Assembly: GCA_038841535.1 (NCBI GenBank) | Contig: JAWBTQ010000002.1 | Span: forward strand, 77,463-141,462 | Direction: 5' to 3' | From: Sulfolobales archaeon | Lineage (GTDB): Archaea > Thermoproteota > Thermoprotei_A > Sulfolobales > NBVN01 | DNA: 64,000 bases | Shown here: positions 21,351 to 61,663 of the stretch, in pieces | Numbering within the stretch: position 1 is the first letter of the stretch | Layout: every line of letters starts with the position of its first letter | The notes under the pieces: model-generated | Database searches by the model: none | The model's input: the letters and a program-made list of their open reading frames with translations, nothing else | What the model was told of the DNA's origin: nothing | Translations under genes and position numbers: made by a program

Positions 21351-21366
21351 CTCCGTACCGATCACC

Positions 21367-41740: not shown

Positions 41741-41746
41741 TCTCAG

Positions 41747-43111
41747 GTGGACTACTCAACCTTAGAGAGCAGGCTGAGTAGCCTAATAAGTGAGCTCGAG
41801 AGCGAGTACCTCAAGAGAACACCGAAGAGTAAAGAGCTCTTTGAAAAGTCAAAGAAGCTTACTCCCGGTGGGGTAACCTACTCGATTAGATACTTCAGAC
41901 CACACCCTGTTTACGTTTCGAGAGCTGAGGGAACTAGGGTTTGGGACGTCGACGGTAATGAGTACGTAGACTACTGGATGGGTCACGGAACCCACATCCT
42001 GGGTCACGCACCAAAGTTCGTTCTCGATGCTGTAGTAGAAGCTATGAGGTCGGGAACTCACTTAGGCTACGAGAACCCCTACGCTGTGGAGTACTCTGAG
42101 CTACTAACGAAGGTCGTGCCTGGCCTAGATATGGTTAGGTTCGCTAACAGTGGAACTGAAGCCAATATGTACACGCTCAGGCTTGCTAGAGCGTTTACAA
42201 AGAGAAAGTACGTAGTTAAAGTCGAGGGTGGTTGGCACGGTGGATACGATGCATTACATACAGCTGTTTCTCCCCCGTTCACTGGTCCTGAATCAGCTGG
42301 ACTCCCCGATGAGTACTTAAGGTATACTCTATCTGCTCCATATAATGACTCAGAAGCAGTTGAGGAGCTATTGAGGAAGCACTCTGTTGGGGCTGTTATA
42401 GTTGAGCCTGTACTCGGGGCTGGTGGTTGCATAGCTCCTGTAGGTAATTACCTCAAGGAGCTTAGGGAGCTTACATACAGGTACGGTTCTCTACTAGTAT
42501 TTGATGAAGTGATTACGGGGTTTAGGCTCGCACTAGGAGGAGGTCAGGAGTACTTTGGTGTTAAAGCAGACCTAGTGGTCATGGGAAAAGTTGTTGGTGG
42601 AGGCTTTTCGGGCGCAGGTGCCTTTGGTGGGAGAGCAGAAATCATGGAGTTACTGGATCACTTGAAGATTCATGATCCAAGGTCTAGAGCCTTCCACGGA
42701 GGGACGTTTGTCGGTAACCCAGTCAATATGGTAGCTGGGTATACCTTGGTTAAGTACCTAGCTGAGAACAAGTCGCTTTATGAGGTTGCAAACAGAATGT
42801 GGGAAGAGTTTAGGAAGTACGTGGATAAAGTCTGTGAAGAATACGGAAGAATATGCTGGTCGACTGGTGCTGGAACCATGACCGGTATACACTTCACTAA
42901 GTTGAGGCCGCGAAACACTAGGGAGGTTTACGAGCTAAGGTGGAGTAAGCAGATTGAGTACGCTTACCACCTCTACTCGAGATTAAGTGGTGTACTCTAC
43001 ATAAGCGAGAAACTAATACATCTTCTGCCGTCACTAGCTCACTCGAGAAAAGAAGTTGAGCTATTTACAGATGTCTTTAGAAGCTTTTTAGCTAGAGTTC
43101 TCAAGGCCTGA
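41747..43111 (+). CDS. class III PLP aminotransferase / glutamate-1-semialdehyde aminomutase-like
   Basis: 454 aa. FANSGTEANM, FDEVITGFRLALGGGQEYFGVKADLVVMGKVVGGGFSGAGAFGGRAEIME (PLP Lys in MGK), GGTFVGNP. GTG start 6 nt after the upstream stop. Confidence 0.85.
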   Translation: MDYSTLESRLSSLISELESEYLKRTPKSKELFEKSKKLTPGGVTYSIRYFRPHPVYVSRAEGTRVWDVDGNEYVDYWMGHGTHILGHAPKFVLDAVVEAMRSGTHLGYENPYAVEYSELLTKVVPGLDMVRFANSGTEANMYTLRLARAFTKRKYVVKVEGGWHGGYDALHTAVSPPFTGPESAGLPDEYLRYTLSAPYNDSEAVEELLRKHSVGAVIVEPVLGAGGCIAPVGNYLKELRELTYRYGSLLVFDEVITGFRLALGGGQEYFGVKADLVVMGKVVGGGFSGAGAFGGRAEIMELLDHLKIHDPRSRAFHGGTFVGNPVNMVAGYTLVKYLAENKSLYEVANRMWEEFRKYVDKVCEEYGRICWSTGAGTMTGIHFTKLRPRNTREVYELRWSKQIEYAYHLYSRLSGVLYISEKLIHLLPSLAHSRKEVELFTDVFRSFLARVLKA

Positions 43112-47721: not shown

Positions 47722-48508
47722 TGGAGCGAAAATCCGCGACTTGCCCCAGGAGTGGTACGAAAGAGTGCTCGGACTGCTCGACTACATCGCTAAAACCCAG
47801 CGCAAAAATATTGAGAAAGCAGCCGAAATCGTCGCAGACTCTATATTCAAGGGACATGTGTGTTTTCTGTTTGGGTCAGGTCATGCTGCTATACCAGTGA
47901 TGGAGATTTTTCCTAGATATGGGTCGATGGTTGGGTTCGTGCCCATAGTAGACCTCCCTCTAATATCCTTCCTTAGGCTAGTGGGGGATATGGGCTATCC
48001 GCAGTTTGATTGCATAGAGAACTCGCCTGAGTATGGGCGCAGAATAGTTGAGAACTACGAGATTCACAGAGACGACTGCGCCATTGTCTTCTCTCATTCT
48101 GGTACTACGCCCGTCACCTTAGAGGTAGCACTACAGATTAAGAGCAGGGGTTCTAAAGTGATTGGGATAACCTCGGTAGCTCATTCGTTGAGGGCTAGAC
48201 CACGACATCCGTCTGGATTAAAGCTATTCGAGGTTGCTGATGTGGTTATAGATACAGGAGTACCACCGGGAGATGTTTCCATAGAGGTATTTAGCGGGGG
48301 AAAGCCTATCAAAGTAGGACCTCTCTCCACAATAGCGTTCGTGTTCGTAGCTAATTTTGTGCTCTTAAGCACCTATGAGCAATTGCTCAAAGCCGGTTAC
48401 GACCCTATAACGCTGCCAGTTAGAGGTTTCGACTCAGATGCCGACATCCTCATGAGGAAAGCCCTCAGTAAGTACAGAGAGCTATACTCTAAACACATCT
48501 CTAAGTAG
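47702..48508 (+). CDS. SIS (sugar isomerase) domain protein, UPF0309-like
   Basis: 268 aa. IEKAAEIVADSIFKGHVCFLFGSGHAA, AIVFSHSGTTPVTLEVALQIKSRGSKVIGITS, HPSGLKLFEVADVVIDTG. The start is uncertain (TTG 47702 overlaps the upstream gene by 20 nt). Confidence 0.7.
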   Translation: MGTQGSSGAKIRDLPQEWYERVLGLLDYIAKTQRKNIEKAAEIVADSIFKGHVCFLFGSGHAAIPVMEIFPRYGSMVGFVPIVDLPLISFLRLVGDMGYPQFDCIENSPEYGRRIVENYEIHRDDCAIVFSHSGTTPVTLEVALQIKSRGSKVIGITSVAHSLRARPRHPSGLKLFEVADVVIDTGVPPGDVSIEVFSGGKPIKVGPLSTIAFVFVANFVLLSTYEQLLKAGYDPITLPVRGFDSDADILMRKALSKYRELYSKHISK

Positions 48509-48516
48509 GGGATGGA

Positions 48517-49473
48517 ATGGTGTTGCGCAACGTCGTATTGTCAATAGACGTTGGTGGAACTAAGATTGCGTACGCGTTTATCGACTCCGGAGGAGGAGTT
48601 CATGATTACGGTATCGTAAAAACTAGGAGAGCTGGGGGAAGGCAGGTTATCAACCAGCTCAGAGAGATCGTTAGATCCTGTCGCTACAAGAAGGTTGTTG
48701 GCGTGGGGGTGAGCGTGCCAGGCATAGTTAGAAACGGATCGGTTACCTGGGCACCTAACATTAGGGAATGGAGGGACGTCCATTTAGCCGATCTGATAAG
48801 CAGGGATATCCCCGAGGGAGGCCTAATAGAGGTCGTAGACGATAGGACGGCTAGCGCTCTGGGTGAGATGTGGCAGGGGGCGGCAAAGAGTCTATCAAAT
48901 TTCATAGTGCTAGTCATAGGGACGGGAGTCGGTGCCGGCGTAGTTATTGACGGTAGGCCTGTCCATGGCTCAGCTGGTGTTTCGGGAGCTGTAGGTTGGT
49001 GGTTACTATCGCGAAGTCTTCCACATCGGAGTACCCGGAGAGGTTTTCTCGAAGAAGAGATAGGGGGATTAGCTCTCGATAGAATCGCCAGAAGGTACTC
49101 TTCATCAAGAACCTCAACAGGCTCTCCACTTCGCGAGCTATGCGAATTCGTCGATTCGACTTGCTTGTTTAGAGCTTACGACCTTGGGCACGATCTCGCA
49201 AAAAACACCCTAGAAAGGAAAGCAGTATTACTCGGGATCCTCATAGCTAACTTACTGAGCCTGCTTAACCCCGAGGCCGTTATACTAAGTGGTAGCGTCG
49301 GAGTTGAGCTAGGTAAAAGGTTTATGCCGCTCATCAGGAGAGTAGTTGAGGCAGTAGCGCAACCGTACGCCACCAAGAGCTACCGCTTAGAGGTATCAAG
49401 CCTAGGTCACTTGTCCTGCTTATACGGCTCTGCCTACTTCGTATTGAAAAGAATGGGGAGCATAGGTAAGTAA
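48517..49473 (+). CDS. ROK-family (ASKHA) sugar kinase, zinc-motif-less
   Basis: 318 aa. LSIDVGGTKIAYAF, VDDRTASALGE, VIGTGVGAGVVIDGRPVHGSAG. The ROK signature GE[IL]GH...CxCGxxGC is replaced by GAVGWW...HRSTRRGF. Confidence 0.75.
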   Translation: MVLRNVVLSIDVGGTKIAYAFIDSGGGVHDYGIVKTRRAGGRQVINQLREIVRSCRYKKVVGVGVSVPGIVRNGSVTWAPNIREWRDVHLADLISRDIPEGGLIEVVDDRTASALGEMWQGAAKSLSNFIVLVIGTGVGAGVVIDGRPVHGSAGVSGAVGWWLLSRSLPHRSTRRGFLEEEIGGLALDRIARRYSSSRTSTGSPLRELCEFVDSTCLFRAYDLGHDLAKNTLERKAVLLGILIANLLSLLNPEAVILSGSVGVELGKRFMPLIRRVVEAVAQPYATKSYRLEVSSLGHLSCLYGSAYFVLKRMGSIGK

Positions 49474-49482
49474 TAAGACCAC

Positions 49483-49488
49483 TTTTTT
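49483..49488 (+). terminator. oligo-T tract after the ROK kinase gene
   Basis: A T6 run 10 nt after the stop, 29 nt before the GH84 start. It could be a partial terminator or simply part of an A/T-rich promoter. Confidence 0.2.
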
Positions 49489-49516
49489 GTTCTGTTAGTT
49501 TCTAACTCGTGAGACT

Positions 49517-50731
49517 ATGCTGCTTGGAGTAGTTGAGGGGTTCTATGGGCCCGCCTGGGACTGGGTTGAGAGGATTAACATTATGGAGTTTCTGAGTAGG
49601 GTAGGTCTCAATGCCTACATATACGCACCTAAGTGGGATCCTCGTCATAGGGATTGGTGGAGGATTCCATACGAACCTGTCTTTGCTGATAGACTAAGCA
49701 TGCTATTAGACTCGGCTTCTAGGTACGGAATCAGAGTTGTTTTCGCCCTAAGCCCGGGCTTAGACATGGACTACTCGTCAGAGCACGATGTTAGATTGCT
49801 AGTAAAGAAGTTCTCTTGGGTTATGGAGCTGGGGGTTGAAGATTTAGCCGTGTTTTTAGACGATATCCCGCCGGTTCTTAGAGGAAAAGGGTTCAAGACT
49901 CTAGCAGAAGCTCAGTCTTCCTTAGTGAACAAGTTGCTTAGGGAGCTGAGACCTAAGTCGCTGGTGTTCTGCCCTACCTATTACCACAGTCTGCGGGAGG
50001 ACTACATGAGAGAGATAGGCGATCTCGTTGATCCCGAGGTATACATAGTTTGGACTGGTATGTGGGTAGCCTCACACAAAATAGACGTAGGGGACTTAGA
50101 ATCCGTGGCCAAGCTCTTAAAGAGAAAGCCGTTCATATGGGATAACTACCCAGTTAACGACTACTTCACCGTTTACGGAATTACGAGGCTACACCTAGGG
50201 CCCCTAAAGAACAGACCTAAAGAGTTCACCAAATATATCTCCGGCTACGCATCTAACCCCATGAATCAGTATGAAGCATCTAAGATACCTCTATACACTA
50301 TCGCAGAAGCCTTACTAAGTACGTCATACGACCCCGAAAAGAGTTTATCGGACGCTATAGACAGCATACTCAATAAGAACTCTAGGTACTGGTTTAAGAG
50401 GTTTGTGGAGTTTAACCGAGCTAACTTTATGGACTTAACGGAACGTACTATAACTAGAGAAAATGCTGACGAGGTGATCGAGCTAGTCAGAGAACTTCGT
50501 GAATCTATAGGAAACAAGAAGTTGGTTAGAGAAGTTGACTCAGTGTTAAGCAAAATGGAGTCCATAGCCAGGTACTCTAAAAACGAGGTATCCTATCTAA
50601 GCTGGCGAGTTCAGACTGCAGGTGAGTACAGTCCCCCAATAACAGCTGAGAGAATGTTGAAGGAGGTGTTCGGAGTAGTAGCCCGACTCACTCCTTGGTA
50701 CAGTAAGGCCTACGTAAAGCCCGAGGTGTAG
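49517..50731 (+). CDS. GH84-family beta-N-acetylglucosaminidase (O-GlcNAcase/NagJ-like)
   Basis: 404 aa. GVVEGFYGPAW, NAYIYAPKWDPRHR, AVFLDDIPP (catalytic Asp-Asp, codons 49859-49864), CPTYY, VWTGMWV, FIWDNYPVNDY. Near-colinear with the NagJ/OGA catalytic domain. Confidence 0.85.
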   Translation: MLLGVVEGFYGPAWDWVERINIMEFLSRVGLNAYIYAPKWDPRHRDWWRIPYEPVFADRLSMLLDSASRYGIRVVFALSPGLDMDYSSEHDVRLLVKKFSWVMELGVEDLAVFLDDIPPVLRGKGFKTLAEAQSSLVNKLLRELRPKSLVFCPTYYHSLREDYMREIGDLVDPEVYIVWTGMWVASHKIDVGDLESVAKLLKRKPFIWDNYPVNDYFTVYGITRLHLGPLKNRPKEFTKYISGYASNPMNQYEASKIPLYTIAEALLSTSYDPEKSLSDAIDSILNKNSRYWFKRFVEFNRANFMDLTERTITRENADEVIELVRELRESIGNKKLVREVDSVLSKMESIARYSKNEVSYLSWRVQTAGEYSPPITAERMLKEVFGVVARLTPWYSKAYVKPEV

Positions 50732-50734
50732 AAA

Positions 50735-52018
50735 GTGATAATTAGGGCGTATAGGAGAGGTGATGAAGAGGAAGTCGTTGAGCTACTCAAGATGTGCTTT
50801 GATGACTTCAATAGGTGGGGTGTGTCAGCGGAGGACTGGCTTTCGTATGAGGAAGGAGACTACGGCTTTAAGATAGATAACGCTCTTGTTGCTGAAGTCA
50901 GTGGTAGATTGGTAGGACACCTTCACTTAGTGATACGGAATGCGTACATAGGTGAAGGTTCCTTTGATATCTGCGGAATAGCTAATGTTTCAACTCACCC
51001 GGACTTCCGAGGTAGGGGTATAGCTACCGCCCTCGTGAAGAGAGCTATAGAGGTGTGTAGAGAAATGGGTTTACCTGTAGTTTCACTACTTACCGGCTAT
51101 GGAGGTGAGGGGTATCGCGTATATAGGTCCGTGGGTTTTTCGAACACGGCTTTTCTGAGAGCATACGTAGGTGCTCGAGATAGTGTCGAAAAGTTTTTAG
51201 AGAGTTATGGGAAGATCAGGCTAGAAGTTGAAGAAATAGGCTACGGGAACATCGATGAAGTAGCTAAGCTTCACGATACGTTACGGAGGAAAGTAAATCT
51301 TGTCATATCGCGTCCCAGAGACTACTGGGTCAGCAAGGTACTGAAGAGATTCTTTTTCTATAGCTTCTTTTACGATCGCTCCGAGGAAGCTATAAAGCTA
51401 CTCTTCAGAGACTCCTCCGGTCCGGTGGGTTATTCTCTGGCTTTTAGTGGGCAACGCGCCTCGAGGAACTACTGGCAGAAAGATGCAGGAGTAGTACTTG
51501 AAGCTGTAGCTATCAACGAGAAATACTTGAAGAGCGTAATCTCCGAGACCCTAAGGCGACTACTCGATAGTGGGGCGAAGTTGTTCAGGCTCTACGTGCC
51601 ACCATTATACAGGCCTATATTACGCTATAGCTTTGAGGAGTTCAAGGGGGGTTTACTAATGGACTACGTAATCGACTTAAAGAAGCTTCTGAGCAGTATG
51701 AGGGATGAACTCTCGAGGAGAGCAGCTTCCGCAGAGCTTAGGGGCCCTATGGACATCAGCATAAGGAGTCCATATGGATGCGCAAATGTTAATGTAGTTG
51801 ATTCTAATGTGGAGATAAGTAGTTCCTGTAAGTTCGAGAATGAAGTGGAGTTCACCAGAGATGGCATCGTTAAAACTATCTATGGAGTAAGCTCCATAGG
51901 CAAACTAGTAAATAAGGACCAGGTAATGAGAATAAACCTTAGCTCACAAGCTTTTAAAGCAGTAAATGCCCTCTTTCCGGCTAGACCAATATACATCCCA
52001 AGGATGGACCAGTGGTAG
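50735..52018 (+). CDS. GNAT-family N-acetyltransferase, Eis-like multi-domain
   Basis: 427 aa. The N-terminal GNAT core includes HPDFRGRGIATALVKRAIE (Q/RxxGxG/A acetyl-CoA loop). Length and extra C-terminal domains resemble the Eis-type architecture. GTG start 4 nt after the GH84 stop. Confidence 0.65.
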   Translation: MIIRAYRRGDEEEVVELLKMCFDDFNRWGVSAEDWLSYEEGDYGFKIDNALVAEVSGRLVGHLHLVIRNAYIGEGSFDICGIANVSTHPDFRGRGIATALVKRAIEVCREMGLPVVSLLTGYGGEGYRVYRSVGFSNTAFLRAYVGARDSVEKFLESYGKIRLEVEEIGYGNIDEVAKLHDTLRRKVNLVISRPRDYWVSKVLKRFFFYSFFYDRSEEAIKLLFRDSSGPVGYSLAFSGQRASRNYWQKDAGVVLEAVAINEKYLKSVISETLRRLLDSGAKLFRLYVPPLYRPILRYSFEEFKGGLLMDYVIDLKKLLSSMRDELSRRAASAELRGPMDISIRSPYGCANVNVVDSNVEISSSCKFENEVEFTRDGIVKTIYGVSSIGKLVNKDQVMRINLSSQAFKAVNALFPARPIYIPRMDQW

Positions 52019-52393
52019 TCGGAGAATCTGCGAGTCCACACGACTTCGAGCCTCTTAGGGAAGTACGAAACGGAGATCTCGTAATTTTAAAGCCTCTTCA
52101 ATATTCTATTCATAAAAGCAGAGCTATGTCGAGGTTCCCCAAAGAGATGTTAAAACTAATGTGCTAAGCGTTATTACGAGAAGACTAAAGTAGAGTAGAA
52201 CGTGTGGATCATTACGCTCATATTGGGACCTACAGTACTCAGTTACTAGTGGAGGGTTAATCAGCAAATAGAATCTTAGAGTATGGACAGCACTTATAGC
52301 CACACCATGTACGGCAGCAAGTCACAGATTTTTCCAGTGTCCTGGGTCCTCTCTTAGTCTTGGGAGCTCTGGTTACGTAACTCTGTGGTTTAA

Positions 52394-54448
52394 ATGATTC
52401 TAGCGATCAACTCACGGGTGCTAACTACGCCTCTACAGAAGTGGGTGATTTATGTTATAGTTGTAGTAGTCATAGCTGCAGTTGCTGTCGGTATAGCAGC
52501 CCAGTTACTCCTTCCGCCACCAGCCGTTCAACCAACTCCCACACCTACCCCTACCGCAATTACCCCCGCAACAACACCGACTCCCACAACACCTCCAACA
52601 GTGACACCTACGACTACTCCTTTACCTACAACACCGACTCCCACACCGACTCCTGGGGAGAAGGTAGTATACTTGTACGGTAGTTGGCCGCCCCCTGAGA
52701 ACTATATTACTAACCCCCTGGTAGGTACCATAGGGATGCTTCACTACTATACCCACATGCCACTAGTGTTTCTAATACCCGCTGATAGAGCACCATTACC
52801 TGGGTTACTCGGTGAGTACCCTAAGCTCATTTCGCTCTTAGCTGATGCCTGGGTATTCAAAGAGTATCCAGGTTCGAATTTAACTATAGCGGAGGTAAAG
52901 CTTAAGAAAACTGGTTGGAGTGATGGTAATCCGCTAACAGCTGAGGACGTTTTTATTAGTATAGTGTACTACGGATGCTTCTACAACTCATTTCCCGGCT
53001 ACTATGAGGTAATTAATGAAACAGCTATAAGGAGGTACTGGAACGCTACGGGCATTAGATTCGAAACACTCACCTCGTGGATGTGGTCTTGGTACGGGAT
53101 TTGGGCATCAAGAGAATACTACAAAGTGGAGCCATTGTGGCCGATCTGTATAGAGCAGTACAGGCTACTAAAGGAGCGCTACTACCTAACAACAGTGGGG
53201 AAGCCTGTACCTAAGGAATTAACGGATAGACTTACTCTGCTCAATAAGTGGTTCAGGGGGAACCTAACGGAGATAGCTAAGAAGGTCCCAGCATACCTAG
53301 CTAATGGACCCTTCTATCCAGCTAAGATCACAGAGTCCCACATTATTTGGGAGAAGAACCCGTACTTCTGGAACACTAAAGGTATGGCAATAGATAGATG
53401 GGTGATGCTAAGCACTCCTGAGACTGCAGTCATAATAGAGAACATCGGTCGCGGAGCCGTTACGTGGTCGACGCTAACATCAATAGTGCCAGACATCGTT
53501 GACGCACTTAAAGCTATAAACAGAGACCTATTGGTGTACCCACTAACTCACTATCGCATGGTCGGCATACTCTTCAATTTCCAGAGATACCCGATGAACG
53601 ATACACACTTCCGTAGAGCGATCGCTTACCTTGTAAATAAAGACGCCATTTTCCAAACTCTTCCCTTCTACGCTAAGGAGACCATACTAAACATAGGGCT
53701 ACCGGAGGAGTTCTTGTGGAAATGGATCTCAAGCGACGACTTAAAGTACTTCACAAGGTACACCTACGACCCCAAGAAGGCGGAAGAAGAACTGCTCGCC
53801 GGAGGCTTCAGAAAAGACCCTAGAACTGGTAAGTGGCTTCTACCGAACGGTACTCCCATATCCATTACCATAACGATTACCTCTGATCCCATGTATGTAA
53901 TACCAGCTGAAGCTATTGCCGGGATGCTTAACAGCTTCGGAATCACGACGCAGATAAGTGTTGTTCCATCAGCTGTTTGGACGACACTCGTTCGGACCTA
54001 CGCTACTACCTACGCCGTAGAGAGAAATTACGACATAACCATCTGGATATCTAGCTTGATGTACGCTACTGCTCACCCGTACTGGACATGGTCCCACATA
54101 CTCATGCTCGGATGGGGTGCTGGAGGAGCAATAGCTTTCCCGAACTGGTGGAACATACAGCATCCGTGGAAGAGCTGCACTAACGACGAAAACATATCTA
54201 GGTTGTTCACTATACTCTACAACAACCCTGGTACAGACGTCGAGAAGTGCGCCATTAAGGCGTTCGCATGGGTCGTCAACGAATATGTGCCTGTCTTACA
54301 TTTGTACGAATATGGTGTCTGGGTATTCATGAACAGTAAGGACATCAAGGGATGGCCCCCGGAGGAAGACCCGGTTTGGAGCGTAAGATTAATGGACGCT
54401 GGCTACTATCGAGCTCTCCTGCTACTCTCGATATATTACCTGCGTTAA
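52394..54448 (+). CDS. ABC transporter substrate-binding protein, family 5 (Opp/Dpp type), membrane-anchored
   Basis: 684 aa. An N-terminal TM helix is followed by a 47-aa Thr/Pro linker and then a large SBP_bac_5-like body. The position directly upstream of two Dpp-type permeases and two ATPases supports the call. Confidence 0.85.
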   Translation: MILAINSRVLTTPLQKWVIYVIVVVVIAAVAVGIAAQLLLPPPAVQPTPTPTPTAITPATTPTPTTPPTVTPTTTPLPTTPTPTPTPGEKVVYLYGSWPPPENYITNPLVGTIGMLHYYTHMPLVFLIPADRAPLPGLLGEYPKLISLLADAWVFKEYPGSNLTIAEVKLKKTGWSDGNPLTAEDVFISIVYYGCFYNSFPGYYEVINETAIRRYWNATGIRFETLTSWMWSWYGIWASREYYKVEPLWPICIEQYRLLKERYYLTTVGKPVPKELTDRLTLLNKWFRGNLTEIAKKVPAYLANGPFYPAKITESHIIWEKNPYFWNTKGMAIDRWVMLSTPETAVIIENIGRGAVTWSTLTSIVPDIVDALKAINRDLLVYPLTHYRMVGILFNFQRYPMNDTHFRRAIAYLVNKDAIFQTLPFYAKETILNIGLPEEFLWKWISSDDLKYFTRYTYDPKKAEEELLAGGFRKDPRTGKWLLPNGTPISITITITSDPMYVIPAEAIAGMLNSFGITTQISVVPSAVWTTLVRTYATTYAVERNYDITIWISSLMYATAHPYWTWSHILMLGWGAGGAIAFPNWWNIQHPWKSCTNDENISRLFTILYNNPGTDVEKCAIKAFAWVVNEYVPVLHLYEYGVWVFMNSKDIKGWPPEEDPVWSVRLMDAGYYRALLLLSIYYLR
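52514..52654 (+). repeat. low-complexity Thr/Pro-coding repeat (linker of the binding protein)
   Basis: PPPAVQPTPTPTPTAITPATTPTPTTPPTVTPTTTPLPTTPTPTPTP. The DNA shows reiterated ACACCGACTCCCACA-type units. Confidence 0.7.
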
Positions 54449-54471
54449 GATCAGTCTACAGGCTGGTGTAA

Positions 54472-55500
54472 ATGGAGTTAACGGGAGTTTTTCCGTTCAT
54501 TAAGTTACTCTCGAAGAGGGTTTTATATGCGATTTTAACAATTATGGTAGCCGTCTCGGTAACTTTCGTGGCTATAAGGTCTATGCCTGGAGATGTGCTT
54601 TACACGCTGGCAGTATCGCTAGCAGAAGAGCTGAGGATCTCCGTAGAGGAGGCCAAGAAGATAGTGTTCTACATATACTATGGGATTGACGTCGAAGAAC
54701 CGATCTACCTACAGTACCTTAAGTATGTCATTGGGTTACTGCAGGGGAACCTAGGGTACTCGACATACTTCAAAAGACCCGTTACTTACGTTGTAGCCAG
54801 GGCGCTAGGCTGGACAGCGTTTACTCTTTCCGTGGGGATCTCTCTGTCTTTCGCTATTGGGATACTGATAGGGATGCTGGCAGGTTTTAAGCGCGGAACT
54901 AAGTTTGACGCCATAGTATCTCTGACCTCGACAGTACTGTCGGCTATACCGGGATACGTAGTAGCGCTACTACTGTACATCATGCTATCTGCGCGACTAG
55001 GACTCCTACCAGCAAGAGGAGCCTACTCACCGCACGTAGAACCGGGACTAAACCTAGCGTTTATGATCGACGTACTCTACCACGCAGCTCTCCCAGTACT
55101 CACATACGTAGTGATAACTTTCTCTGGCTGGACGCTACTCATAAGATCGAACGTGGCGAAGATACTGGAGGAGGACTTTCTCAAGTACGCTGAGGCGCGG
55201 GGAATTAGCAGGAGGAGAATAGTGACTACCTACATAGGTAGAAACTCCATACTGCCAATAGTGCCTCTCCTGGCTATAAGAGTGGGGAGCATGATTGGCG
55301 GCTCTACCCTCATAGAAACGATCTTCGCGTATCCCGGTATGGGGTATTACCTATCTCTAGCTCTTAGCATTAGAGATTACGGTCTTCTCCAGGGCATATA
55401 CTTTATGATGATAGTCGCAACTATAGTTGCGGTAATAGTGGTCGAGTTCCTCACCCCGTTAATAGATCCAAGAGTTCGACGCGAGGTAGTAGCAACATGA
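54472..55500 (+). CDS. ABC transporter permease (DppB/OppB-like)
   Basis: 342 aa, 6 TM, with a BPD_transp_1 EAA-type loop (LKYAEARGISRRRIVTTYIGRNSILP). Confidence 0.9.
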   Translation: MELTGVFPFIKLLSKRVLYAILTIMVAVSVTFVAIRSMPGDVLYTLAVSLAEELRISVEEAKKIVFYIYYGIDVEEPIYLQYLKYVIGLLQGNLGYSTYFKRPVTYVVARALGWTAFTLSVGISLSFAIGILIGMLAGFKRGTKFDAIVSLTSTVLSAIPGYVVALLLYIMLSARLGLLPARGAYSPHVEPGLNLAFMIDVLYHAALPVLTYVVITFSGWTLLIRSNVAKILEEDFLKYAEARGISRRRIVTTYIGRNSILPIVPLLAIRVGSMIGGSTLIETIFAYPGMGYYLSLALSIRDYGLLQGIYFMMIVATIVAVIVVEFLTPLIDPRVRREVVAT

Positions 55501-56384
55501 CTTCCTACAGGAGTTCTAAGTCGAGACTTAAGCTCATATACTTAGACTTCGTGAGACCAGTAATCCTAAGCGGTAGAGGAGTCCTAGGTATCGCTATCAT
55601 AGTCTCCATGATCTTTATGGCTACATTAGGGCCCGAGCTCATACCTCTAGATACGGGTGTTAAGCCGCAGATGAAGTGGTGTCAGCCCTCTCTTGAGCAT
55701 CCGCTAGGGTGCGACTACCTCGGCCGCGACCTGTTCTCACTGGTAGTTCACGGTTCGAGAGAGGTCTTCCTTATACCCTTCTGTGCTACTTTGATTGGTG
55801 TGGTCGTAGGGCTATCTATAGGTCTGTTAGCAGGTTATATTGGCGGGTTGGCTAGAAGAGCTCTAACCTCAGTAACTGACACGTGGTTAACAATACCGTC
55901 GTTTCCAGTAATATTTATATTAGCCTACGCTTTACCTAAGTCTCCGGTCTCCATAATACTTCTACTAACTCTCTTTAGCTGGCCCGGGCTAGCTAGAGCG
56001 GTAGCCGCTGAAGTATCCTCATTGAAGCGCAGAGACTACATCGAGGCGTGCGTTAACCTAGGCCTTGGGAGGGGCTACATACTGTTCAGAGAGATAGGAC
56101 CTCACATACTCCCATTTGTAGCAATCAACTTCGCCTCGGTTTTCGTCGCAAACATGACGTCTCTAATAGGCATAGTCCTCCTCGGGGTAGCCCCACTGAA
56201 CCCAACTAATTGGGGCTACTTACTAAACCAGATGATATTTACTTACAAGGGACTGCTCCTAGCTAATGCATCAGTAGTGATAGTGTTGATGATACTCATG
56301 TTGGTTTTTATAAAGCTGGGTGTAGTGTTCTTTGCTCAATCCCTCGAAGAGGTCTTTAACCCAAGGTTGAGGAGGTATGAGTGA
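55497..56384 (+). CDS. ABC transporter permease (DppC/OppC-like)
   Basis: 295 aa. HPLGCDYLGRDLFS, typical of the OppC N-terminus, and YIEACVNLGLGRGYILFREIGPHILP. The ATGA start/stop overlaps the upstream permease. Confidence 0.9.
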   Translation: MTSYRSSKSRLKLIYLDFVRPVILSGRGVLGIAIIVSMIFMATLGPELIPLDTGVKPQMKWCQPSLEHPLGCDYLGRDLFSLVVHGSREVFLIPFCATLIGVVVGLSIGLLAGYIGGLARRALTSVTDTWLTIPSFPVIFILAYALPKSPVSIILLLTLFSWPGLARAVAAEVSSLKRRDYIEACVNLGLGRGYILFREIGPHILPFVAINFASVFVANMTSLIGIVLLGVAPLNPTNWGYLLNQMIFTYKGLLLANASVVIVLMILMLVFIKLGVVFFAQSLEEVFNPRLRRYE

Positions 56385-57384
56385 AAAACTCGATAAGAAC
56401 CAGAAGCTGGTTATCCGTGACCTGAGAATGGAGTACCTAGTGAGAGAAGGGACCGTAAAAGCGGTAAACGGAGTCAACCTCACTATACCTGAGGGGAGGA
56501 TTACCGCTATCGTGGGCGAGAGCGGCTCCGGGAAAACCTCTCTGGTTGAGACCTTTCTTAAAATTTTACCTAAAAACGCGAGAATAAGGTCCGGTAAGGC
56601 CCTTCTCAAGCTCTCCAACGGAACAGCTGTAGACCTGATAGAAGCGAGCGATAGCTTAATGAGAAAGCTAAGAGGGAGAGTCGTGGGATATATACCTCAA
56701 GGAGCGCAAAACTCTTTAAACCCTGTCTTAACCATCGAGCAGCACTTCCTCGAAACCCTCAGGGAGCATGGGACTCACTCTAAGGAGGCTATCGAGGAGA
56801 GAGTTCGCGCAATGCTTTCTCTCGTTAGGCTAGACCCTGAGGTCGTCTTGAAGAAGTACCCTCATGAGCTAAGTGGAGGCATGAAGCAGAGAGTTGTGAT
56901 AGCATTGACTATGTTACTCCAACCGGAACTAGTAGTTCTAGACGAGCCAACTTCGGCTTTAGACATCTTCTCTCAAAGGGTTCTGCTGAACATACTCTAC
57001 AAGATCCAGTCCACTTATAAGAATACCATGGTTTTGATCACACACGATATCCCGATAGTATCAGAGCTAACCGATAGGGTGGCGGTTCTCTACGCAGGAG
57101 CTATAGTAGAGTCCGCAGATACGTACGAGGTATTCAAGGAGCCTATACACCCCTATACCTCTATGCTTATATCTGCCATACCTTCGGTAGTAGACGTCTA
57201 CCTAAAGAGGGTGCCTAAGCCGGTACCTGGAGAGCCCCCCAGTCTTCTAAATCCACCACCAGGCTGCAGATTCCATCCTAGATGTCCTCACGCTTTTGAG
57301 AAATGCAGGCTTAAGGAGCCTCCTACGGTAGAAGTGCACTCAGGTCACTTCGTTAGTTGCTGGCTGTACGCCGAGGGTGTGTAG
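56377..57384 (+). CDS. ABC transporter ATPase (DppD/OppD-like)
   Basis: 335 aa. GESGSGKTS, LSGGMKQRVVIA, LVVLDEPTSALD, and a C-terminal oligo_HPY region HPYT...PPGCRFHPRCPHAFEKC. Confidence 0.9.
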   Translation: MSEKLDKNQKLVIRDLRMEYLVREGTVKAVNGVNLTIPEGRITAIVGESGSGKTSLVETFLKILPKNARIRSGKALLKLSNGTAVDLIEASDSLMRKLRGRVVGYIPQGAQNSLNPVLTIEQHFLETLREHGTHSKEAIEERVRAMLSLVRLDPEVVLKKYPHELSGGMKQRVVIALTMLLQPELVVLDEPTSALDIFSQRVLLNILYKIQSTYKNTMVLITHDIPIVSELTDRVAVLYAGAIVESADTYEVFKEPIHPYTSMLISAIPSVVDVYLKRVPKPVPGEPPSLLNPPPGCRFHPRCPHAFEKCRLKEPPTVEVHSGHFVSCWLYAEGV

Positions 57385-57386
57385 AG

Positions 57387-58421
57387 ATGAAGAGGGTTGT
57401 CGCAGTAGAGAAGGTAAGTAAGACCTACTCCAGAGGGTTATTTAAGAAGAGGCTTATCAGTGCAGTGCAGAGCGCTTCTCTCGAGGTATCTAGCGGTGAG
57501 TTAATTAGTATCGTTGGTGAGAGCGGCTCCGGAAAGACTACTCTGGGAAAGTTGATGACTGGCTTAGTCCTTCCTAGTAGCGGGAGGCTAATCTGGAGAG
57601 ACGTGGACGTAATTAAGAACGGAAGAATAGTCAATAGAGAGTTCTACTCTTCGAATAGACATAGATACGTATACGTCCATCAAGACCCGTATAGTGCTCT
57701 AAATCCTTCTAAGAACGTATGGGACACTCTCAACCCGGTGATCAGTAAGTACAAGAAGCACTTAGGAACATCGGATAAGTATAAAACAGTGATAGAGCTC
57801 CTAGAGGAGGTAGGACTAGTTCCAGCAGATTACTTCATCGATAAGTATCCTCACCACCTCTCTGGAGGTATGAGGCAGAGACTTGCTCTAGCGAGAGCTC
57901 TGGCAGCTGATCCTCACTTCATAGTGGCAGACGAAATAGTGAGCATGGTAGACCCGTCAATAAGGATATCGCTAGTGAACCTCCTCAAGGATATAGTGAA
58001 GGCGCGCAATATCTCGGTAGTGTTCATATCTCACGACCTCGGAATATCTATTTATGCCGCTGAAAACAACTTCATGTACGTGATGCTTAACGGGGTGGTC
58101 GTAGAGTACGGTCCTGCCTACGAGATAGCTTACTCCCCCGAACATCCGTATACAAGAGCCCTAATATCTAATACATCCGTTCCACTACCCTCACGAGAGA
58201 AGCGTGTGAGAGAGCTAGATGGCGTTGCGGTCGAAGACAGTAAACCCAGGCCAAACACACTGTGCCCATTTGCTTCTCTATGCCCGTTTGTTGATTCAGA
58301 GTGCTCTTCTTTTGAGCTTGGGTTTTACTTAAAAGCAGGTGCTAAGCACTTCTCAGCGTGTTTAAAGACTGGAAAGCTACCTAAGTGGAAGCCCAGCTGG
58401 CTCCAAACCCTATCTGGGTAG
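57387..58421 (+). CDS. ABC transporter ATPase (DppF/OppF-like)
   Basis: GESGSGKTT, LSGGMRQRLALARAL, FIVADEIVSMVD, HPYT. The start was moved to ATG 57387 (MKRVVAVEKV), 3 nt after the upstream stop; the track ORF starts at 57357. Confidence 0.9.
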   Translation: MKRVVAVEKVSKTYSRGLFKKRLISAVQSASLEVSSGELISIVGESGSGKTTLGKLMTGLVLPSSGRLIWRDVDVIKNGRIVNREFYSSNRHRYVYVHQDPYSALNPSKNVWDTLNPVISKYKKHLGTSDKYKTVIELLEEVGLVPADYFIDKYPHHLSGGMRQRLALARALAADPHFIVADEIVSMVDPSIRISLVNLLKDIVKARNISVVFISHDLGISIYAAENNFMYVMLNGVVVEYGPAYEIAYSPEHPYTRALISNTSVPLPSREKRVRELDGVAVEDSKPRPNTLCPFASLCPFVDSECSSFELGFYLKAGAKHFSACLKTGKLPKWKPSWLQTLSG

Positions 58422-58426
58422 AGCAG

Positions 58427-58627
58427 ATGAGAGCACACCCAATTATTCTAGTCGACCTTCTAGCATTAGCCGTAGTCACATTAGTACTTTCCGCTGTAGC
58501 TCTAGCAATACTACAGCCATCTGATGAAGCATATCTGCCGGCACTCTCAGCCTTATTTATTTCTTTAGTCCTCGTCTTTGTAGCCCTAGTCGGGTTTAGG
58601 AGAGCTATTAAAGTAGAGAAAACGTAG
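58427..58627 (+). CDS. small two-TM membrane protein (hypothetical)
   Basis: 66 aa from ATG 58427 (MRAHPIILVDLLALAVV...), 6 nt after the ATPase stop. Two hydrophobic helices. Support comes only from position and hydrophobicity. Confidence 0.35.
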   Translation: MRAHPIILVDLLALAVVTLVLSAVALAILQPSDEAYLPALSALFISLVLVFVALVGFRRAIKVEKT

Positions 58628-58673
58628 AGTCGTTACGTAATCCTTTCCCTTTAAACTTCTAACCCCAAAAAGT

Positions 58674-61343
58674 ATGGGGGAAATATTGAGAACTATTTAT
58701 ATCGTAATCCTGACTATAGTAGTGGTCGCGGCTATAGTCACCCCCACAGTTTTCCGGGTTCTTAAGCCTGAGACGTCGGAAACATCTACACCTATAGAAA
58801 CTACGGCAGTAGCTTTCACTCTAGTACAGCTACCGCTTAGAAAAAGACCATTCGTGTGGACCTGGATCTACAGCACGAAATCCAGCGAAGTCGCCGAGCT
58901 CCTGAGCAGATTCGGAGGTCGCGCGATAGATGTGGTCTCACCTGATTGGTACTATCTTACCGAGGACTTGAGTCTAGGTTTATACTACGAGAGAGGGGCG
59001 GAAGACCCAGGTTTTGTGAAACTTAGTAAAGACTCAGGAATCTTGATAGTCCCGATGGTTGTTTCTTCTAAAGGAGATAGAGTAAAGAACCTAATAACGA
59101 GTCGGGAAGCTATCGAGAGGTTCTCCAGGCAACTCGTAGAGACAGCAGCTAGAATGGGATACTCCGGCTTTAATATAGACTTCGAGGTAAGCCTCCCACT
59201 CTACTCTAGAGAGTTCGCTGAATTCATAGACTATCTTGCTAAGAGGCTTCATGAGGCTGGACTTATATTAACTGTAGCAGTGCCCGCCAAGAGGGCTGAG
59301 ATCCGTAGCGACTATCTAATGACTTACGACTACCAACTTCTAGCAAAAACAGACGCTGACTACATTATGATCATGGCATACGACTACTACGAGATAGTGG
59401 GACCTAAGCCGGTCGCCCCCATGCCTTGGGTAGAGGACTGTATTGAGTACTCCCTAAGGTTCTTCCCTAGAGAAAAACTCGTTCTCGGCGTCCCTAATTA
59501 CGGAAAAGTTTGGGACGACAAGGGCAAGTTAGTGAAGTGGTTACTGCACCAGGATTATCTGTCCATGGTATCCCAGGGAGAGCGCTTTGTAGTAGACCTA
59601 AGCTCGAGAGAGCTTATGGCTAAAACAGCCGAGGGAGTAGCATACTACGTTGATGGAGAGATGGCGTACTACCGAGCAAAGCTCGCACTCTCCCATCGCT
59701 TAGCCGGTGTAGCAATATGGAGACTCGACGGGGGAGACCTCGGCTTATGGGAGCTTCTCGAGGATTTCCGTCTCTCGCATGCGGGACCCCCCGACTACCC
59801 TCTAGCTAAGTGGATAGAGGCCTACTCAGGTAATTATCAAAAGTCAAACAGAACGGAAGTCAACTGGATAGTGGTCCACGTCACCGAGGGCTCGACTCAG
59901 TCTGCTATTAACTGGTTCCTAGACCCACGATCCGGAGTTTCAGCCCATTATATAATCTCGTTGGGAGGATCGGTCTATCAAATGGTTATGGAGAAAGACA
60001 TCGCTTGGCATGCGGGTAACAAGCAGTACAACCTACTGTCTATAGGTATAGAGCATGAGGGCTTCGTTAAGGCAAGGATGTTTACGGAATCTCAATACAG
60101 ATCGTCCGCCCGCTTAATAGCATATCTAGCCTATAAGTATGGCATATCATTAGATCACGTAGTCGGCATAGCTCCTCCGGATCCCGCGGAAAGTAAAGGG
60201 ATAATAGGGCACGACCAAGTTCCTGACCCGAGGAATCAGACGATAGGTGGAGGAATCTCCCACCACACTGATCCTGGACCATACTGGGATTGGCGTTTAT
60301 ACATGGAGCTCGCGAGGAAGTACTACGAAGCCTTAGTAAGTGGAAATTATGAGAAGGCCTTTATCGCAGTGTGGTGGGGTGTTTACTCGGATAAGTGGAG
60401 CATGAATAGAGATGTCTGGCTTAAGCAGGTTAATGAAGCTCTAGCTAAGCTCAAGAGAGCTGGGGTTGACGCTGTGTTCTTTCTAGTTAAGGACCCCTGG
60501 GGCTACGTATATTACAATAGCTCCTACGCACCTCTGAACCCGAAGTATTCTTGGGACGTTCTCGGCGATGTAGTGAAGGTCGCTAAAAAATATGGAATAG
60601 AGGTTTACGTATATATAAACGCTCTATCCGAGGGAGAGACCAGTCCCGGGTTCTATTTACAGCAGAACCCCCACTTCGCTCTCTATGATGAGTACGGAAA
60701 CATGCTCGGTTGGGTAGACCCCTACTGTGAAGAATACGTGCAGAGGCTCCTCGACATAGTAGCTGAGATATTGACTAAGTACCCCGAGGTCAGAGGGGTA
60801 CAACTAGATAGAATAAGAGCTCCTCAGAGCAACGTCATCGGAAAATGCTCTTCGGAGGGTTTCTGGAAGCAATATGGTAAGAACCCCAAAGACGATATAC
60901 GACTCTACCAGAAGTTTCTAGTTGACGGTATAACTAGCATAGTCAAGAGAGTTTCTGCTTTAGCTAAGAGCGCTAGGCCCGGCATTCACGTGTCTGCCGC
61001 AGTATTCCCGAGTCCAACCGCCGTTCATACCGTACTCCAGGATTGGATTTATTGGGTTAACGAGGGTGTGGTCGATGCTGTCGCAACAATGACCTACACA
61101 ATAGACTTTACAACGTTTAAGAGTTACGTGACATCACAGCTCGGAACTATTAAAGACCCTAGTAAGCTCCTTATAGGTGTAGGAGCGTGGCAGCTATTAG
61201 ACGAAATGCTGGTATCCCAACTGAGTTATGTGATAGAGGAGCTTAATCTCAAGGGAGCTGTTCTGTTTAACTTAGACAGCCTAATAGACAAGAACCTGGC
61301 CGAAACCCTTACCAAGTTCAGACTTACATACTATTGCCGATAG
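58674..61343 (+). CDS. membrane-anchored three-domain glycan hydrolase: GH18-like + N-acetylmuramoyl-L-alanine amidase (Amidase_2) + GHL10/DUF187-like
   Basis: 889 aa.
- TM anchor: aa 8-27.
- GH18: aa ~58-362 (nt ~58845-59759), with GFNIDFE (DxE at 59178-59186), MIMAYDY, GVPNYG, AIWRLDGGD.
- Amidase_2: aa ~393-545 (nt ~59850-60308), with NWIVVHVTEG, VSAHYII, IAWHAGN, LSIGIEHEG, IGHDQV, HHTDPGPYWDW.
- GHL10-like: aa ~560-840 (nt ~60351-61193), with GVDAVFFLVKDPWGYVYYNS, GIEVYVYINA, VRGVQLDRIR, QDWIYWVNEGVVDAVATMTY. Confidence 0.85.
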   Translation: MGEILRTIYIVILTIVVVAAIVTPTVFRVLKPETSETSTPIETTAVAFTLVQLPLRKRPFVWTWIYSTKSSEVAELLSRFGGRAIDVVSPDWYYLTEDLSLGLYYERGAEDPGFVKLSKDSGILIVPMVVSSKGDRVKNLITSREAIERFSRQLVETAARMGYSGFNIDFEVSLPLYSREFAEFIDYLAKRLHEAGLILTVAVPAKRAEIRSDYLMTYDYQLLAKTDADYIMIMAYDYYEIVGPKPVAPMPWVEDCIEYSLRFFPREKLVLGVPNYGKVWDDKGKLVKWLLHQDYLSMVSQGERFVVDLSSRELMAKTAEGVAYYVDGEMAYYRAKLALSHRLAGVAIWRLDGGDLGLWELLEDFRLSHAGPPDYPLAKWIEAYSGNYQKSNRTEVNWIVVHVTEGSTQSAINWFLDPRSGVSAHYIISLGGSVYQMVMEKDIAWHAGNKQYNLLSIGIEHEGFVKARMFTESQYRSSARLIAYLAYKYGISLDHVVGIAPPDPAESKGIIGHDQVPDPRNQTIGGGISHHTDPGPYWDWRLYMELARKYYEALVSGNYEKAFIAVWWGVYSDKWSMNRDVWLKQVNEALAKLKRAGVDAVFFLVKDPWGYVYYNSSYAPLNPKYSWDVLGDVVKVAKKYGIEVYVYINALSEGETSPGFYLQQNPHFALYDEYGNMLGWVDPYCEEYVQRLLDIVAEILTKYPEVRGVQLDRIRAPQSNVIGKCSSEGFWKQYGKNPKDDIRLYQKFLVDGITSIVKRVSALAKSARPGIHVSAAVFPSPTAVHTVLQDWIYWVNEGVVDAVATMTYTIDFTTFKSYVTSQLGTIKDPSKLLIGVGAWQLLDEMLVSQLSYVIEELNLKGAVLFNLDSLIDKNLAETLTKFRLTYYCR

Positions 61344-61479
61344 AGCTTAAACTTAATACAGTACAACGAGTTCTATTTCGGTTATTTGCTGCGGATTTAA
61401 GTGGCCTAATCGAGTTGGGGTTCAGCTCTGATATAGGTTTGTATTGGTTGATTTTATTGCCTCATCTCTTACTCCCGCA

Positions 61480-61663
61480 TCCTGCTCGGGTCCTCATCGG
61501 GCTCTGGGGCGTCCGGGGAATCCTAGGCCGTATCACATCTCGGTTTATCCTCGGGAGAGCCCGCACTTCATCTACGTAGCTCTCGACCACTCATCGAGTA
61601 ACCTTCGCACATCGATCCACGCCGAGACACTCATAAACGTCTTTGTTGCATCCATCAAGCAAC
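61480..61663 (+). repeat. copy A of a diverged ~170-185-nt direct repeat (by-eye alignment)
   Basis: Ordered blocks: TCCTGCTC (61480), CTCTGGGGCG (61502), CTACGTAG (61572), ATCCACG (61615), CATCCATCAAGCAAC (61649). The same order recurs in copy B. Confidence 0.3.

Follow-up and report, generated by a model that had tools for sequence, protein, structure and literature searches.

Why would an archaeon that has no murein of its own encode a protein assembled from three kinds of bacterial-type cell wall hydrolase? The question is posed by a gene at positions 58674-61343 (forward strand) of a 64-kb window, i.e. the whole stretch of 64,000 nucleotides analysed here, which covers positions 77,463 to 141,462 of contig JAWBTQ010000002.1 in the Sulfolobales archaeon assembly GCA_038841535.1. 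The open reading frame (ORF) starts with ATG and encodes 889 amino acids (aa), ordered from the N to the C terminus as a membrane helix, a Thr/Ser/Pro linker and the GH18, Amidase_2 and GHL10 domains. The product is probably a cell-surface murein depolymerase of an uncultured, hyperthermophilic archaeon (Sulfolobales/Desulfurococcaceae), forming the extracellular front end of a locus dedicated to the scavenging of murein and amino sugars.

The GH25 lysozyme of Aciduliprofundum is a precedent for peptidoglycan hydrolases in archaea. Archaeal wall hydrolases have so far been discussed as antibacterial weapons, whereas the locus described here points to murein as food: one anchored enzyme joins an amidase with two types of glycosidase for peptide-free glycan, and its gene is coupled to those for an importer and for amino-sugar metabolism. 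Modular peptidoglycan hydrolases have been reported in about 5% of archaeal genomes, and two of them were shown to kill bacteria; the survey required a cell wall-binding and a catalytic domain together, and its main text mentions neither 'Thermoproteota' nor 'Sulfolobales' (Strock et al. 2025, PLoS Biol, PMC12352652). The three-domain protein lies outside that definition and that set because it has no wall-binding domain. Moreover, no paper dealing with archaeal GHL10 proteins, or with the three-domain architecture in archaea, emerged from a literature search, in line with a first-pass annotation, made by a model from the sequence alone, which knew of no characterised protein with this combination. 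That archaea can possess murein hydrolases is already known; what appears to be undescribed is an anchored protein with three catalytic domains, the broader family of archaeal Amidase_2-GHL10 proteins, and the conserved coupling to an importer and amino-sugar genes in a hyperthermophile. As an ecological frame, with no assignment to archaea, geothermal metagenomics has indicated that heterotrophs rely heavily on bacterial necromass, N-acetylmuramic acid (MurNAc)-L-Ala amidase being among the most abundant EC (Enzyme Commission) annotations in the predicted-secreted enzyme set (PMC10437873).

Architecture and conservation of the hydrolase

The gene was delimited by ORF calling, Pfam and exact-sequence look-up, and domains were called by Pfam profile search with curated cut-offs. 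Conservation of residues in the family was read from an alignment of nine three-domain proteins sharing 50-92% identity. Contigs carrying relatives are designated by L numbers and the proteins of relatives by P numbers; coordinates refer to the forward strand unless marked (-). The position and length given in the first-pass annotation were both reproduced, the motifs it quoted were found without exception (GFNIDFE at residues 165-171, MAYDY at 234-238, GVPNYG at 272-277, VVHVTEG at 400-406, IGHDQV at 511-516 and HHTDPGP at 530-536), and the three domain types it named all exceed the Pfam cut-offs. An identical protein is present in NCBI as MEM2551156.1 and MEM4985180.1 ('MAG: N-acetylmuramoyl-L-alanine amidase [Sulfolobales archaeon]', MAG standing for metagenome-assembled genome), and the 90%-identity cluster of the hydrolase includes one member from 'Desulfurococcaceae archaeon'.

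The sole Kyte-Doolittle peak of the protein (residues ~1-27) is modelled by AlphaFold2 as a helix spanning residues 2-26 (58677-58751), which bears out the N-terminal transmembrane anchor seen in the first reading, and an N-terminal hydrophobic segment is likewise present in all full-length members of the family. The helix is followed by a disordered Thr/Ser/Pro-rich stalk (residues 27-55, 58752-58838), with a predicted local distance difference test score (pLDDT) below 50 at residues 27-52; in the family alignment this region is T/P-rich, variable in length, and longer in the homologues. The AlphaFold2 model of the whole hydrolase, computed from a 48-sequence alignment, has a mean pLDDT of 90.4 and features three folded domains after the linker.

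The first of these is a GH18 TIM-barrel of the SleL/YaaH/YdhD type (58839-59777), for which the Glyco_hydro_18 profile (PF00704) matched residues 140-352 with 66.4 bits against a cut-off of 29.6; scores among the homologues range from 31 to 79 bits. Comparison of folds with Foldseek recovered the (beta/alpha)8 barrel characteristic of GH18, with 5jh8 as the best match (template modelling score TMt 0.84, E 6e-21), followed by SleL, YdhD and class V chitinases. The closest PDB sequences are 5jh8, YdhD (3cz8), 4q6t, 4wiw and SleL/YaaH (4s3k), the SleL/YaaH structure 4s3j also being among the nearest solved ones, and the domain shares with them the motif G-x-(N/T/V)-(I/V/L)-D-F-E. The family signature DxxDxDxE reads S-G-F-N-I-D169-F-E171 in the archaeal protein, so that its D-x-E core is retained while the first two Asp are replaced by S and N, as they also are in YdhD, 5jh8 and 4q6t. 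The core N167/D169/E171 is conserved, with D169 present in eight of the nine family members and missing from P0008. Profile, fold and retained D169/E171 thus uphold the GH18 assignment made from the motifs. In sequence and fold, the archaeal domain falls into one GH18 subgroup with the spore-cortex N-acetylglucosaminidases SleL/YaaH and YdhD of Bacillus, with which it shares G-x-(N/T)-(I/V)-D-F-E; however, the archaeal protein lacks LysM and any sporulation context, identity is only ~15-22%, and the proteins closest to it in sequence are archaeal GH18s that stand alone and have an N-terminal anchor (40-60% identity), from Sulfolobales MAGs, Zestosphaera, Ignisphaera and Korarchaeota. The next tier, at ~30% identity, is bacterial; some of its members carry PG_binding_1/2/3 or SH3 domains, with peptidoglycan-binding PF01471, PF09374 or PF08823 in P0146, P0148, P0151 and P0158, and others are labelled 'spore germination protein YaaH'.

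The central Amidase_2 domain (59787-60317), of the AmpD/T7-lysozyme/PGRP fold, was matched by PF01510 at residues 394-536 with 104.8 bits against a cut-off of 26, and its PDB sequence matches are AmpD, AmpDh2 and AmiD. The complete zinc-ligand pattern recognised in the first-pass annotation was recovered here: H34, H154, D164 and E116 of Escherichia coli AmpD have their counterparts in the putative ligands H402, H513 and D533 and in the catalytic E460, by motif correspondence and not by structural superposition, and H402, Y426, E460, H513, H531 and D533 are invariant in all nine family members. All the sampled archaeal members, together with three outside sequences of unassigned origin, have an insertion of 13-14 residues before the second zinc-ligand His. 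The archaeal domain therefore resembles the AmpD, AmiD and T7 lysozyme amidases in its 105-bit Pfam match and in its motif-matched zinc ligands and catalytic Glu, but differs from them in having His at the position of AmpD K162, in the insertion, and in being extracellular and set between two glycosidases. The nearest bacterial amidases (45-50% identity; Actinomycetota, Dormibacterota/Chloroflexota, Armatimonadota and Bacillota) are fused, in place of glycosidases, to a golvesin-C-like domain.

The C-terminal GHL10 domain (60339-61340), a TIM-barrel of the DigH/Cwp19 family, was matched by PF02638 at residues 584-816 (65.0 bits, cut-off 27.9), with an overlapping GHL6 match of 36.4 bits against a cut-off of 35. 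Many of its positions are conserved in the family, including the invariant D712, which sits within GVQLDRIR where a beta-strand ends. Modelled separately, the domain reached a pLDDT of 94.6 and a predicted TM-score (pTM) of 0.92, and its best solved fold is Cwp19 of Clostridioides difficile (5oq3; E 2e-20, TMq 0.77, TMt 0.74). DigH (YddW) of E. coli scores 453 bits on the GHL10 model and is 25% identical to the archaeal domain (E 5e-9). The region had been called DUF187/GHL10-like at first; profile and fold confirm GHL10, and the description can now be refined by naming Cwp19 and DigH as its characterised members. Cwp19, with which the characterisation of GHL10 enzymes began, acts on peptidoglycan as a lytic transglycosylase/muramidase and yields reducing-end products that terminate in unsubstituted MurNAc (PMC6016235), and DigH is a hydrolase specific for denuded glycan, from which the peptides have already been removed by amidases (PMC12288456). 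Both characterised GHL10 enzymes cleave the glycan of peptidoglycan, and the function of the family is thus known; their activities provide a mechanistic logic for the fusion of an amidase to GHL10. Despite the common Pfam family and the closeness of the Cwp19 fold, the archaeal domain is distinguished by its low identity to DigH, by its fusion in cis to an amidase that would generate its substrate, and by a membrane anchor in a host without murein, where the bacterial enzymes are a lipoprotein or a CWB2-anchored wall protein.

The ratio of nonsynonymous to synonymous substitutions (dN/dS), calculated by the Nei-Gojobori method against the 91%-identical orthologue on L002, is 0.18 for GH18, 0.14 for Amidase_2 and 0.08 for GHL10. 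As these values are low, all three domains are under purifying selection, including the amidase, which has no substrate in the host's own envelope.

Genomic context

The hydrolase gene is the last of a co-directional twelve-gene cluster of 15.8 kb (45562-61343). Directly 5' of it, on the same strand, lies a complete Opp/Dpp-type ATP-binding cassette (ABC) importer composed of an SBP_bac_5 solute-binding protein with an N-terminal anchor and a Thr/Pro stalk (52394-54448; Pfam, 104 bits), two BPD_transp_1 permeases (54472-55500, 137 bits; 55497-56384, 72 bits) and two Opp/Dpp-type ATPases with ABC_tran and oligo_HPY domains (56377-57384 and 57357-58421). The importer adjoins the hydrolase in all six contexts, namely the window, L001, L002-L004, L005, L085 and L086, across hydrolase identities of 44-91%. 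Gene order on L002-L004 (91% identity) is as in the window, and L085 and L086 (65-70%) maintain the same order without the GH84 gene. On L001 (50%) the importer is adjacent, while on L005 (44%) it lies on the opposite strand, with a GH42 gene beyond it. The contexts that join hydrolase and importer usually also include genes for GH42, a NagS-like SIS protein, a ROK kinase and a GNAT acetyltransferase.

Between the second ATPase and the hydrolase there is a small ORF of 80 aa with two hydrophobic helices (58385-58627), for which no family match was found in the profile libraries. ORFs of 65-80 aa occupy the same place on L001 (4722-4919) and L002-L004 (9700-9942 on L002), and the product may be an accessory membrane subunit.

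A further link to murein is provided by L001, where the gene directly 3' of the three-domain gene (7738-10563) encodes P0010, a protein of 941 aa in which the same GH18 subtype (50% identity, motif GYNIDFE) is fused to Peptidase_S13 (312 bits), a PBP4-type D-Ala-D-Ala carboxypeptidase/endopeptidase. In the same genome, the GH18 of the three-domain P0008 is the one that has lost D169. S13 enzymes are not known to act on anything but the peptides of murein. Stand-alone S13 homologues, 58-61% identical to the P0010 peptidase, were found on L097 (7773-9446, 361 bits) and L094 (52-1320, 313 bits); the L097 copy adjoins a FEN-1-type flap endonuclease gene on a 348-kb contig, and the genome is for this reason considered archaeal. 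These sequences indicate that such archaea also have peptidases for murein peptides as separate proteins. Within the 64-kb window, tblastn found no S13 peptidase.

The cluster begins with a GH42 glycosidase gene (45562-47721; Glyco_hydro_42 and 42M), which accompanies the hydrolase on L005, L085 and L086, i.e. in every context long enough to show it. Its identification as a Thermococcus-type exo-beta-glucosaminidase of the archaeal chitin pathway was rejected, as the PDB matches are GH42 beta-galactosidases and include no glucosaminidase structure. The next gene (47702-48508) encodes a SIS_2 protein of the UPF0309/NagS family (NCBIfam PRK02947, 219 bits), which is not MurQ (24 bits on the MurQ model, cut-off 168); its PDB matches are 3cvj of B. 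halodurans (E 1.2e-26) and 9eol, corresponding to SCO4393, or NagS (E 1.5e-18). NagS is a dehydratase of N-acetylglucosamine 6-phosphate (GlcNAc-6P) related to MurQ, and its orthologues have been stated to be limited to Streptomycetaceae (PMC12680351). The presence of an archaeal UPF0309 homologue in an amino-sugar locus suggests that NagS-related chemistry is more widespread. To judge from its family, the SIS gene ties the cluster to the phosphates of N-acetyl amino sugars, without demonstrating catabolism of MurNAc.

The remaining members of the cluster upstream of the importer are a ROK sugar kinase (48517-49473; ROK, 132 bits), which falls below all NCBIfam equivalog cut-offs, a GH84 beta-N-acetylglucosaminidase (49517-50731; NAGidase, 278 bits), found only in the window and on L002-L004, and an Eis-like GNAT acetyltransferase of 427 aa (50735-52018; Acetyltransf_9), conserved on L002-L004, L085 and L086. 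The nearest PDB entries of the GNAT protein are the Eis-like 3n7z, 4my0 and 2ozg, which do not identify its substrate. By analogy with the glucosaminide N-acetyltransferase that Reith and Mayer reportedly described in 2011 from the murein-recycling cluster of Clostridium acetobutylicum, it might be a candidate for re-acetylating the glucosamine (GlcN) of de-N-acetylated murein.

Origin and distribution of the family

The guanine-cytosine content of the hydrolase gene (GC 0.477) and that of its third codon positions (GC3 0.52-0.54 by domain) equal the values of the neighbouring genes, and the gene is therefore neither a recent import nor a mis-binned bacterial fragment. Furthermore, in a neighbour-joining tree without support values, built only from retrieved hits to the hydrolase after coverage filtering, the archaeal amidase domains of eleven three-domain and three two-domain proteins form one clade. 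Recent horizontal transfer is ruled out by these two results together. The first-pass annotation had described a bacterial-type hydrolase, possibly with a bacterial donor: the bacterial character holds for the distant relatives, while the host-like composition and the archaeal nearest relatives speak against a recent transfer from Firmicutes.

The closest relatives of the GHL10 half are two-domain Amidase_2-GHL10 proteins of 520-594 aa (41-51% identity) from 'Thermoproteota/Thermoprotei archaeon' MAGs; hydrophobic segments lie at the N terminus in most of these proteins and at the C terminus in almost all. Bacterial relatives are only more distant and, for the amidase, belong chiefly to Actinomycetota, Dormibacterota and Bacillota. 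The three-domain protein thus looks like a fusion, made within archaea, of an archaeal stand-alone GH18 lineage and an archaeal Amidase_2-GHL10 lineage, both ultimately of bacterial origin. The wider two-domain family comprises P0121-P0134 and P0192 (e.g. L087 3194-4951 and L091 8001-9713).

The three-domain architecture is rare. When an amidase and GHL10 profile was run against 1.84 billion cluster representatives, both domains were found in only four of them, two with three domains (P0005, P0193) and two with two (P0121, P0192). The full protein occurs in at least one GTDB species representative (L005, a Sulfolobales MAG), a count that is a lower bound from a scan in which one of the two search patterns also matches bacterial amidases. 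The same search also retrieved proteins with three tandem Amidase_2 domains and no GHL10 (P0215, 989 aa; P0223, 1322 aa, with an additional trypsin-like peptidase domain), their origin being unassigned.

Proposed function and alternatives

In the mechanism proposed here, the N-terminal helix would tether the enzyme to the membrane and the flexible stalk would hold the three catalytic domains outside the cell. Amidase_2 would cut the MurNAc-L-Ala bond and release free stem peptides and denuded glycan strands, in which the alternating GlcNAc-MurNAc and MurNAc-GlcNAc bonds would then be cut by GH18, as an N-acetylglucosaminidase of the SleL/YdhD type, and by GHL10, as a muramidase or lytic transglycosylase of the DigH/Cwp19 type. 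Since the GH18 and GHL10 families are known or inferred to act on peptide-poor glycan, a 'denude-then-cut' enzyme is suggested. Mono- or disaccharides and/or stem peptides would be imported by the adjacent ABC system and processed in the cytoplasm by GH84/GH42, the ROK kinase, the NagS-like SIS protein and the GNAT enzyme; in at least one relative (L001), the GH18-S13 fusion would add the cleavage of peptide cross-links. A surface-displayed enzyme, either bacteriolytic or murein-harvesting and feeding the importer, had been envisaged from the outset. The kept catalytic residues, the purifying selection on all three domains and the linkage in six contexts lend support to that suggestion at the level of sequence, and of its two options harvesting is favoured over a diffusible weapon because of the membrane anchor and the catabolic context.

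A more ambitious version, which is advanced tentatively and remains rather doubtful, regards 45562-61343 as a complete archaeal peptidoglycan utilisation locus supporting growth on bacterial walls. Here, one enzyme would both denude the strands and make the two glycan cuts, the importer would take up muro-saccharides and/or stem peptides, the GNAT enzyme would re-acetylate GlcN, and a NagS-type SIS protein would replace MurQ. The last step is suggested by the dehydration of GlcNAc-6P by NagS, presumably a 2,3-elimination analogous to the elimination of lactate from MurNAc 6-phosphate by MurQ.

Several observations weigh against murein scavenging. GH18 is mainly a chitinase family, its score is only ~31-32 bits in the most divergent members (P0008 and L005), the first of which is the one without D169, and four of its five closest solved sequence matches (the uncharacterised bacterial 'chitinases' 5jh8, 4q6t and 4wiw, and the human chitinase-like protein SI-CLP, 3bxw) have no demonstrated cleavage of peptidoglycan or chitin. 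In the amidase, the position of AmpD K162 (K128 in T7 lysozyme) is occupied by H531, a His also found in the closest bacterial homologues. The second fold neighbour of GHL10, after Cwp19, is PgaB, a hydrolase of poly-N-acetylglucosamine (PNAG), and another GlcNAc polymer is therefore possible as substrate. The Pfam scan of the hydrolase found no LysM, chitin-binding or other recognisable cell wall-binding domain. As for the context, the nearest structures of the solute-binding protein are DppA and a Thermotoga mannoside-binding protein, which indicate no ligand, and MurQ, MurK, AnmK, NagA, NagB and a second SIS gene were not found among the genes of the 64-kb window. Moreover, in the contexts inspected, no importer lies beside the two-domain Amidase_2-GHL10 relatives or the stand-alone GH18 of Zestosphaera, and the linkage is thus specific to the three-domain clade.

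The same catalytic evidence would also apply to a weapon acting by contact lysis on live bacterial competitors or prey, with nutrient uptake as a secondary benefit, in the manner of the Halogranum hydrolases or the Aciduliprofundum GH25 lysozyme: a single protein with three lytic activities would be a powerful bacteriolytic agent, and the killing of bacteria by peptidoglycan hydrolases of archaea is on record (PMC12352652). Nevertheless, the enzyme is membrane-tethered and not secreted, it has no targeting or cell wall-binding domain in the Pfam scan, and its gene resides in a chromosomal, host-like context with a stable link to an importer and sugar catabolism, not in a toxin/immunity or plasmid setting. 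Both glycosidase families, in addition, prefer denuded or fragmented glycan, so that debris fits better than intact sacculi. A primarily antibacterial role is thus unlikely, although scavenging and killing are not mutually exclusive. The use of chitin, chitosan or PNAG, in which GH18 and GHL10 would cut a non-murein polymer and the amidase-like domain would have another role, such as binding or the cleavage of some other amide bond, is suggested by the chitinase affiliation of GH18, by PgaB as the fold neighbour of GHL10 after Cwp19, and by the GlcNAc orientation of GH84, the ROK kinase and the NagS-like SIS protein in a window without MurQ. Opp-type ABC systems are, furthermore, importers of chitobiose in Thermococcus. 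However, chitin and PNAG offer the Amidase_2 fold no known substrate, and yet its key residues are invariant and its dN/dS is 0.14. On L001, a GH18 of this subtype is joined to a D-Ala-D-Ala peptidase, and several of the bacterial relatives of the GH18 carry peptidoglycan-binding domains, whereas the Pfam scan detected no chitin-binding module and the GH42 protein matches beta-galactosidases and no exo-glucosaminidase structure. We accordingly assign a low probability to such polymers as the main target.

Two further targets belong to archaea themselves. Sulfolobales N-glycans have a chitobiose core, and an enzyme anchored at the cell's own surface could trim surface glycans or the N-glycans of the surface layer, with the importer recovering the products; weak, sub-threshold GH85-like matches around the GH18 catalytic motif would be in keeping with this. 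Against it, the fold ranking gives no support to an endo-beta-N-acetylglucosaminidase-type GH18: none of EndoH, EndoF and EndoS is among the 50 best fold matches, which do include SleL and YdhD. All characterised members of the Amidase_2, GHL10 and S13 families act on murein, and the restriction of the family to few lineages would be odd for a housekeeping function of the envelope; self-directed trimming is therefore very unlikely. The pseudomurein of co-resident Methanobacteriales or Methanopyrales contains GlcNAc, and thermophilic methanogens with such walls occur in geothermal systems. However, pseudomurein is beta-1,3-linked and lacks both the MurNAc-L-Ala bond and D-amino acids, thus providing no substrate for Amidase_2 or for the S13 partner, and the enzymes known to lyse it are of another family, which makes this target highly improbable.

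Murein scavenging is also set apart from the systems it most resembles. The modular archaeal peptidoglycan hydrolases of Strock et al., such as 'Woldo' of Halogranum, share with the present protein the bacterial-type wall-cleaving domains, the export signals and the occurrence in archaea without murein, but the latter has three catalytic domains and no binding domain, and is membrane-anchored and encoded in a nutrient-uptake locus, unlike a secreted weapon. With the bacterial loci for murein recycling, such as murQ-murR-murP-amiE-nagZ of B. subtilis and AmpG/AmpD/NagZ/MppA-Opp of E. coli, the resemblance is one of logic only, in that an amidase and glycosidases would release fragments, a transporter would import them, and a glycosidase, a kinase and a SIS protein would process them. 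The archaeal locus has no MurQ, MurP or AmpG, relying on an Opp/Dpp-type ABC system and a NagS/UPF0309 SIS protein; a single polypeptide carries all the extracellular activities, and the host has no murein of its own to recycle.

Other features of the window

A TTTAAA box read from the sequence at 58650-58655, 19-24 nt 5' of the hydrolase ATG, may be an archaeal TATA element that would give rise to a leaderless or near-leaderless transcript. The 3' end of the hydrolase is overlapped by a TTG-start ORF of 81 aa (61334-61579), which is probably not a gene because none is called there in the orthologous loci. Rfam and tRNA scans found no RNA genes in the window.

The window also encodes a HerA-NurA pair, a KaiC-like ATPase and two paralogous aldehyde:ferredoxin oxidoreductases of the tungsten type (15291-17159 (-) and 25783-27690 (+)), enzymes typical of peptide- or sugar-fermenting hyperthermophiles. 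This content fits an anaerobic, peptide-fermenting hyperthermophilic archaeon. A beta-oxidation-like cluster at 17294-22233 (-) comprises both subunits, alpha and beta, of an electron transfer flavoprotein, an acyl-CoA dehydrogenase, an enoyl-CoA hydratase and a 3-hydroxyacyl-CoA dehydrogenase. Just upstream of the locus, at 38572-43111, a CpsA-like M20 carboxypeptidase falls short of its cut-off (479 bits against 500), as does an Ord-like protein resembling 2,4-diaminopentanoate dehydrogenase (198 bits); together with a neighbour similar to class-III aminotransferases/aminomutases, they may form a catabolic module for diamino acids or peptides.

A gene at 10818-12059 (-), coding for 413 aa, passes the NCBIfam equivalog for the diaminopimelate (DAP) decarboxylase LysA (372 bits against 298). 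Sulfolobales-type archaea are expected to make lysine via the LysW/alpha-aminoadipate route, and for this reason a salvage role is proposed, in which the LysA-type enzyme could convert meso-DAP recovered from murein stem peptides to lysine.

Conclusions

If the complete utilisation locus proves true, it would represent the first archaeal pathway for murein catabolism, possibly one that handles MurNAc without MurQ, and would tie bacterial necromass directly to the nutrition of hot-spring archaea. Confirmation of the enzyme would yield a thermostable murein depolymerase with all its activities in one protein, which would interest biotechnology, as well as a natural in-cis test of the model, derived from cell division in E. 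coli, in which the amidase acts first and a DigH-type glycosidase second. For the organisms themselves, it would define a concrete route by which the carbon and nitrogen of necromass enter the archaeal heterotrophs of geothermal environments.

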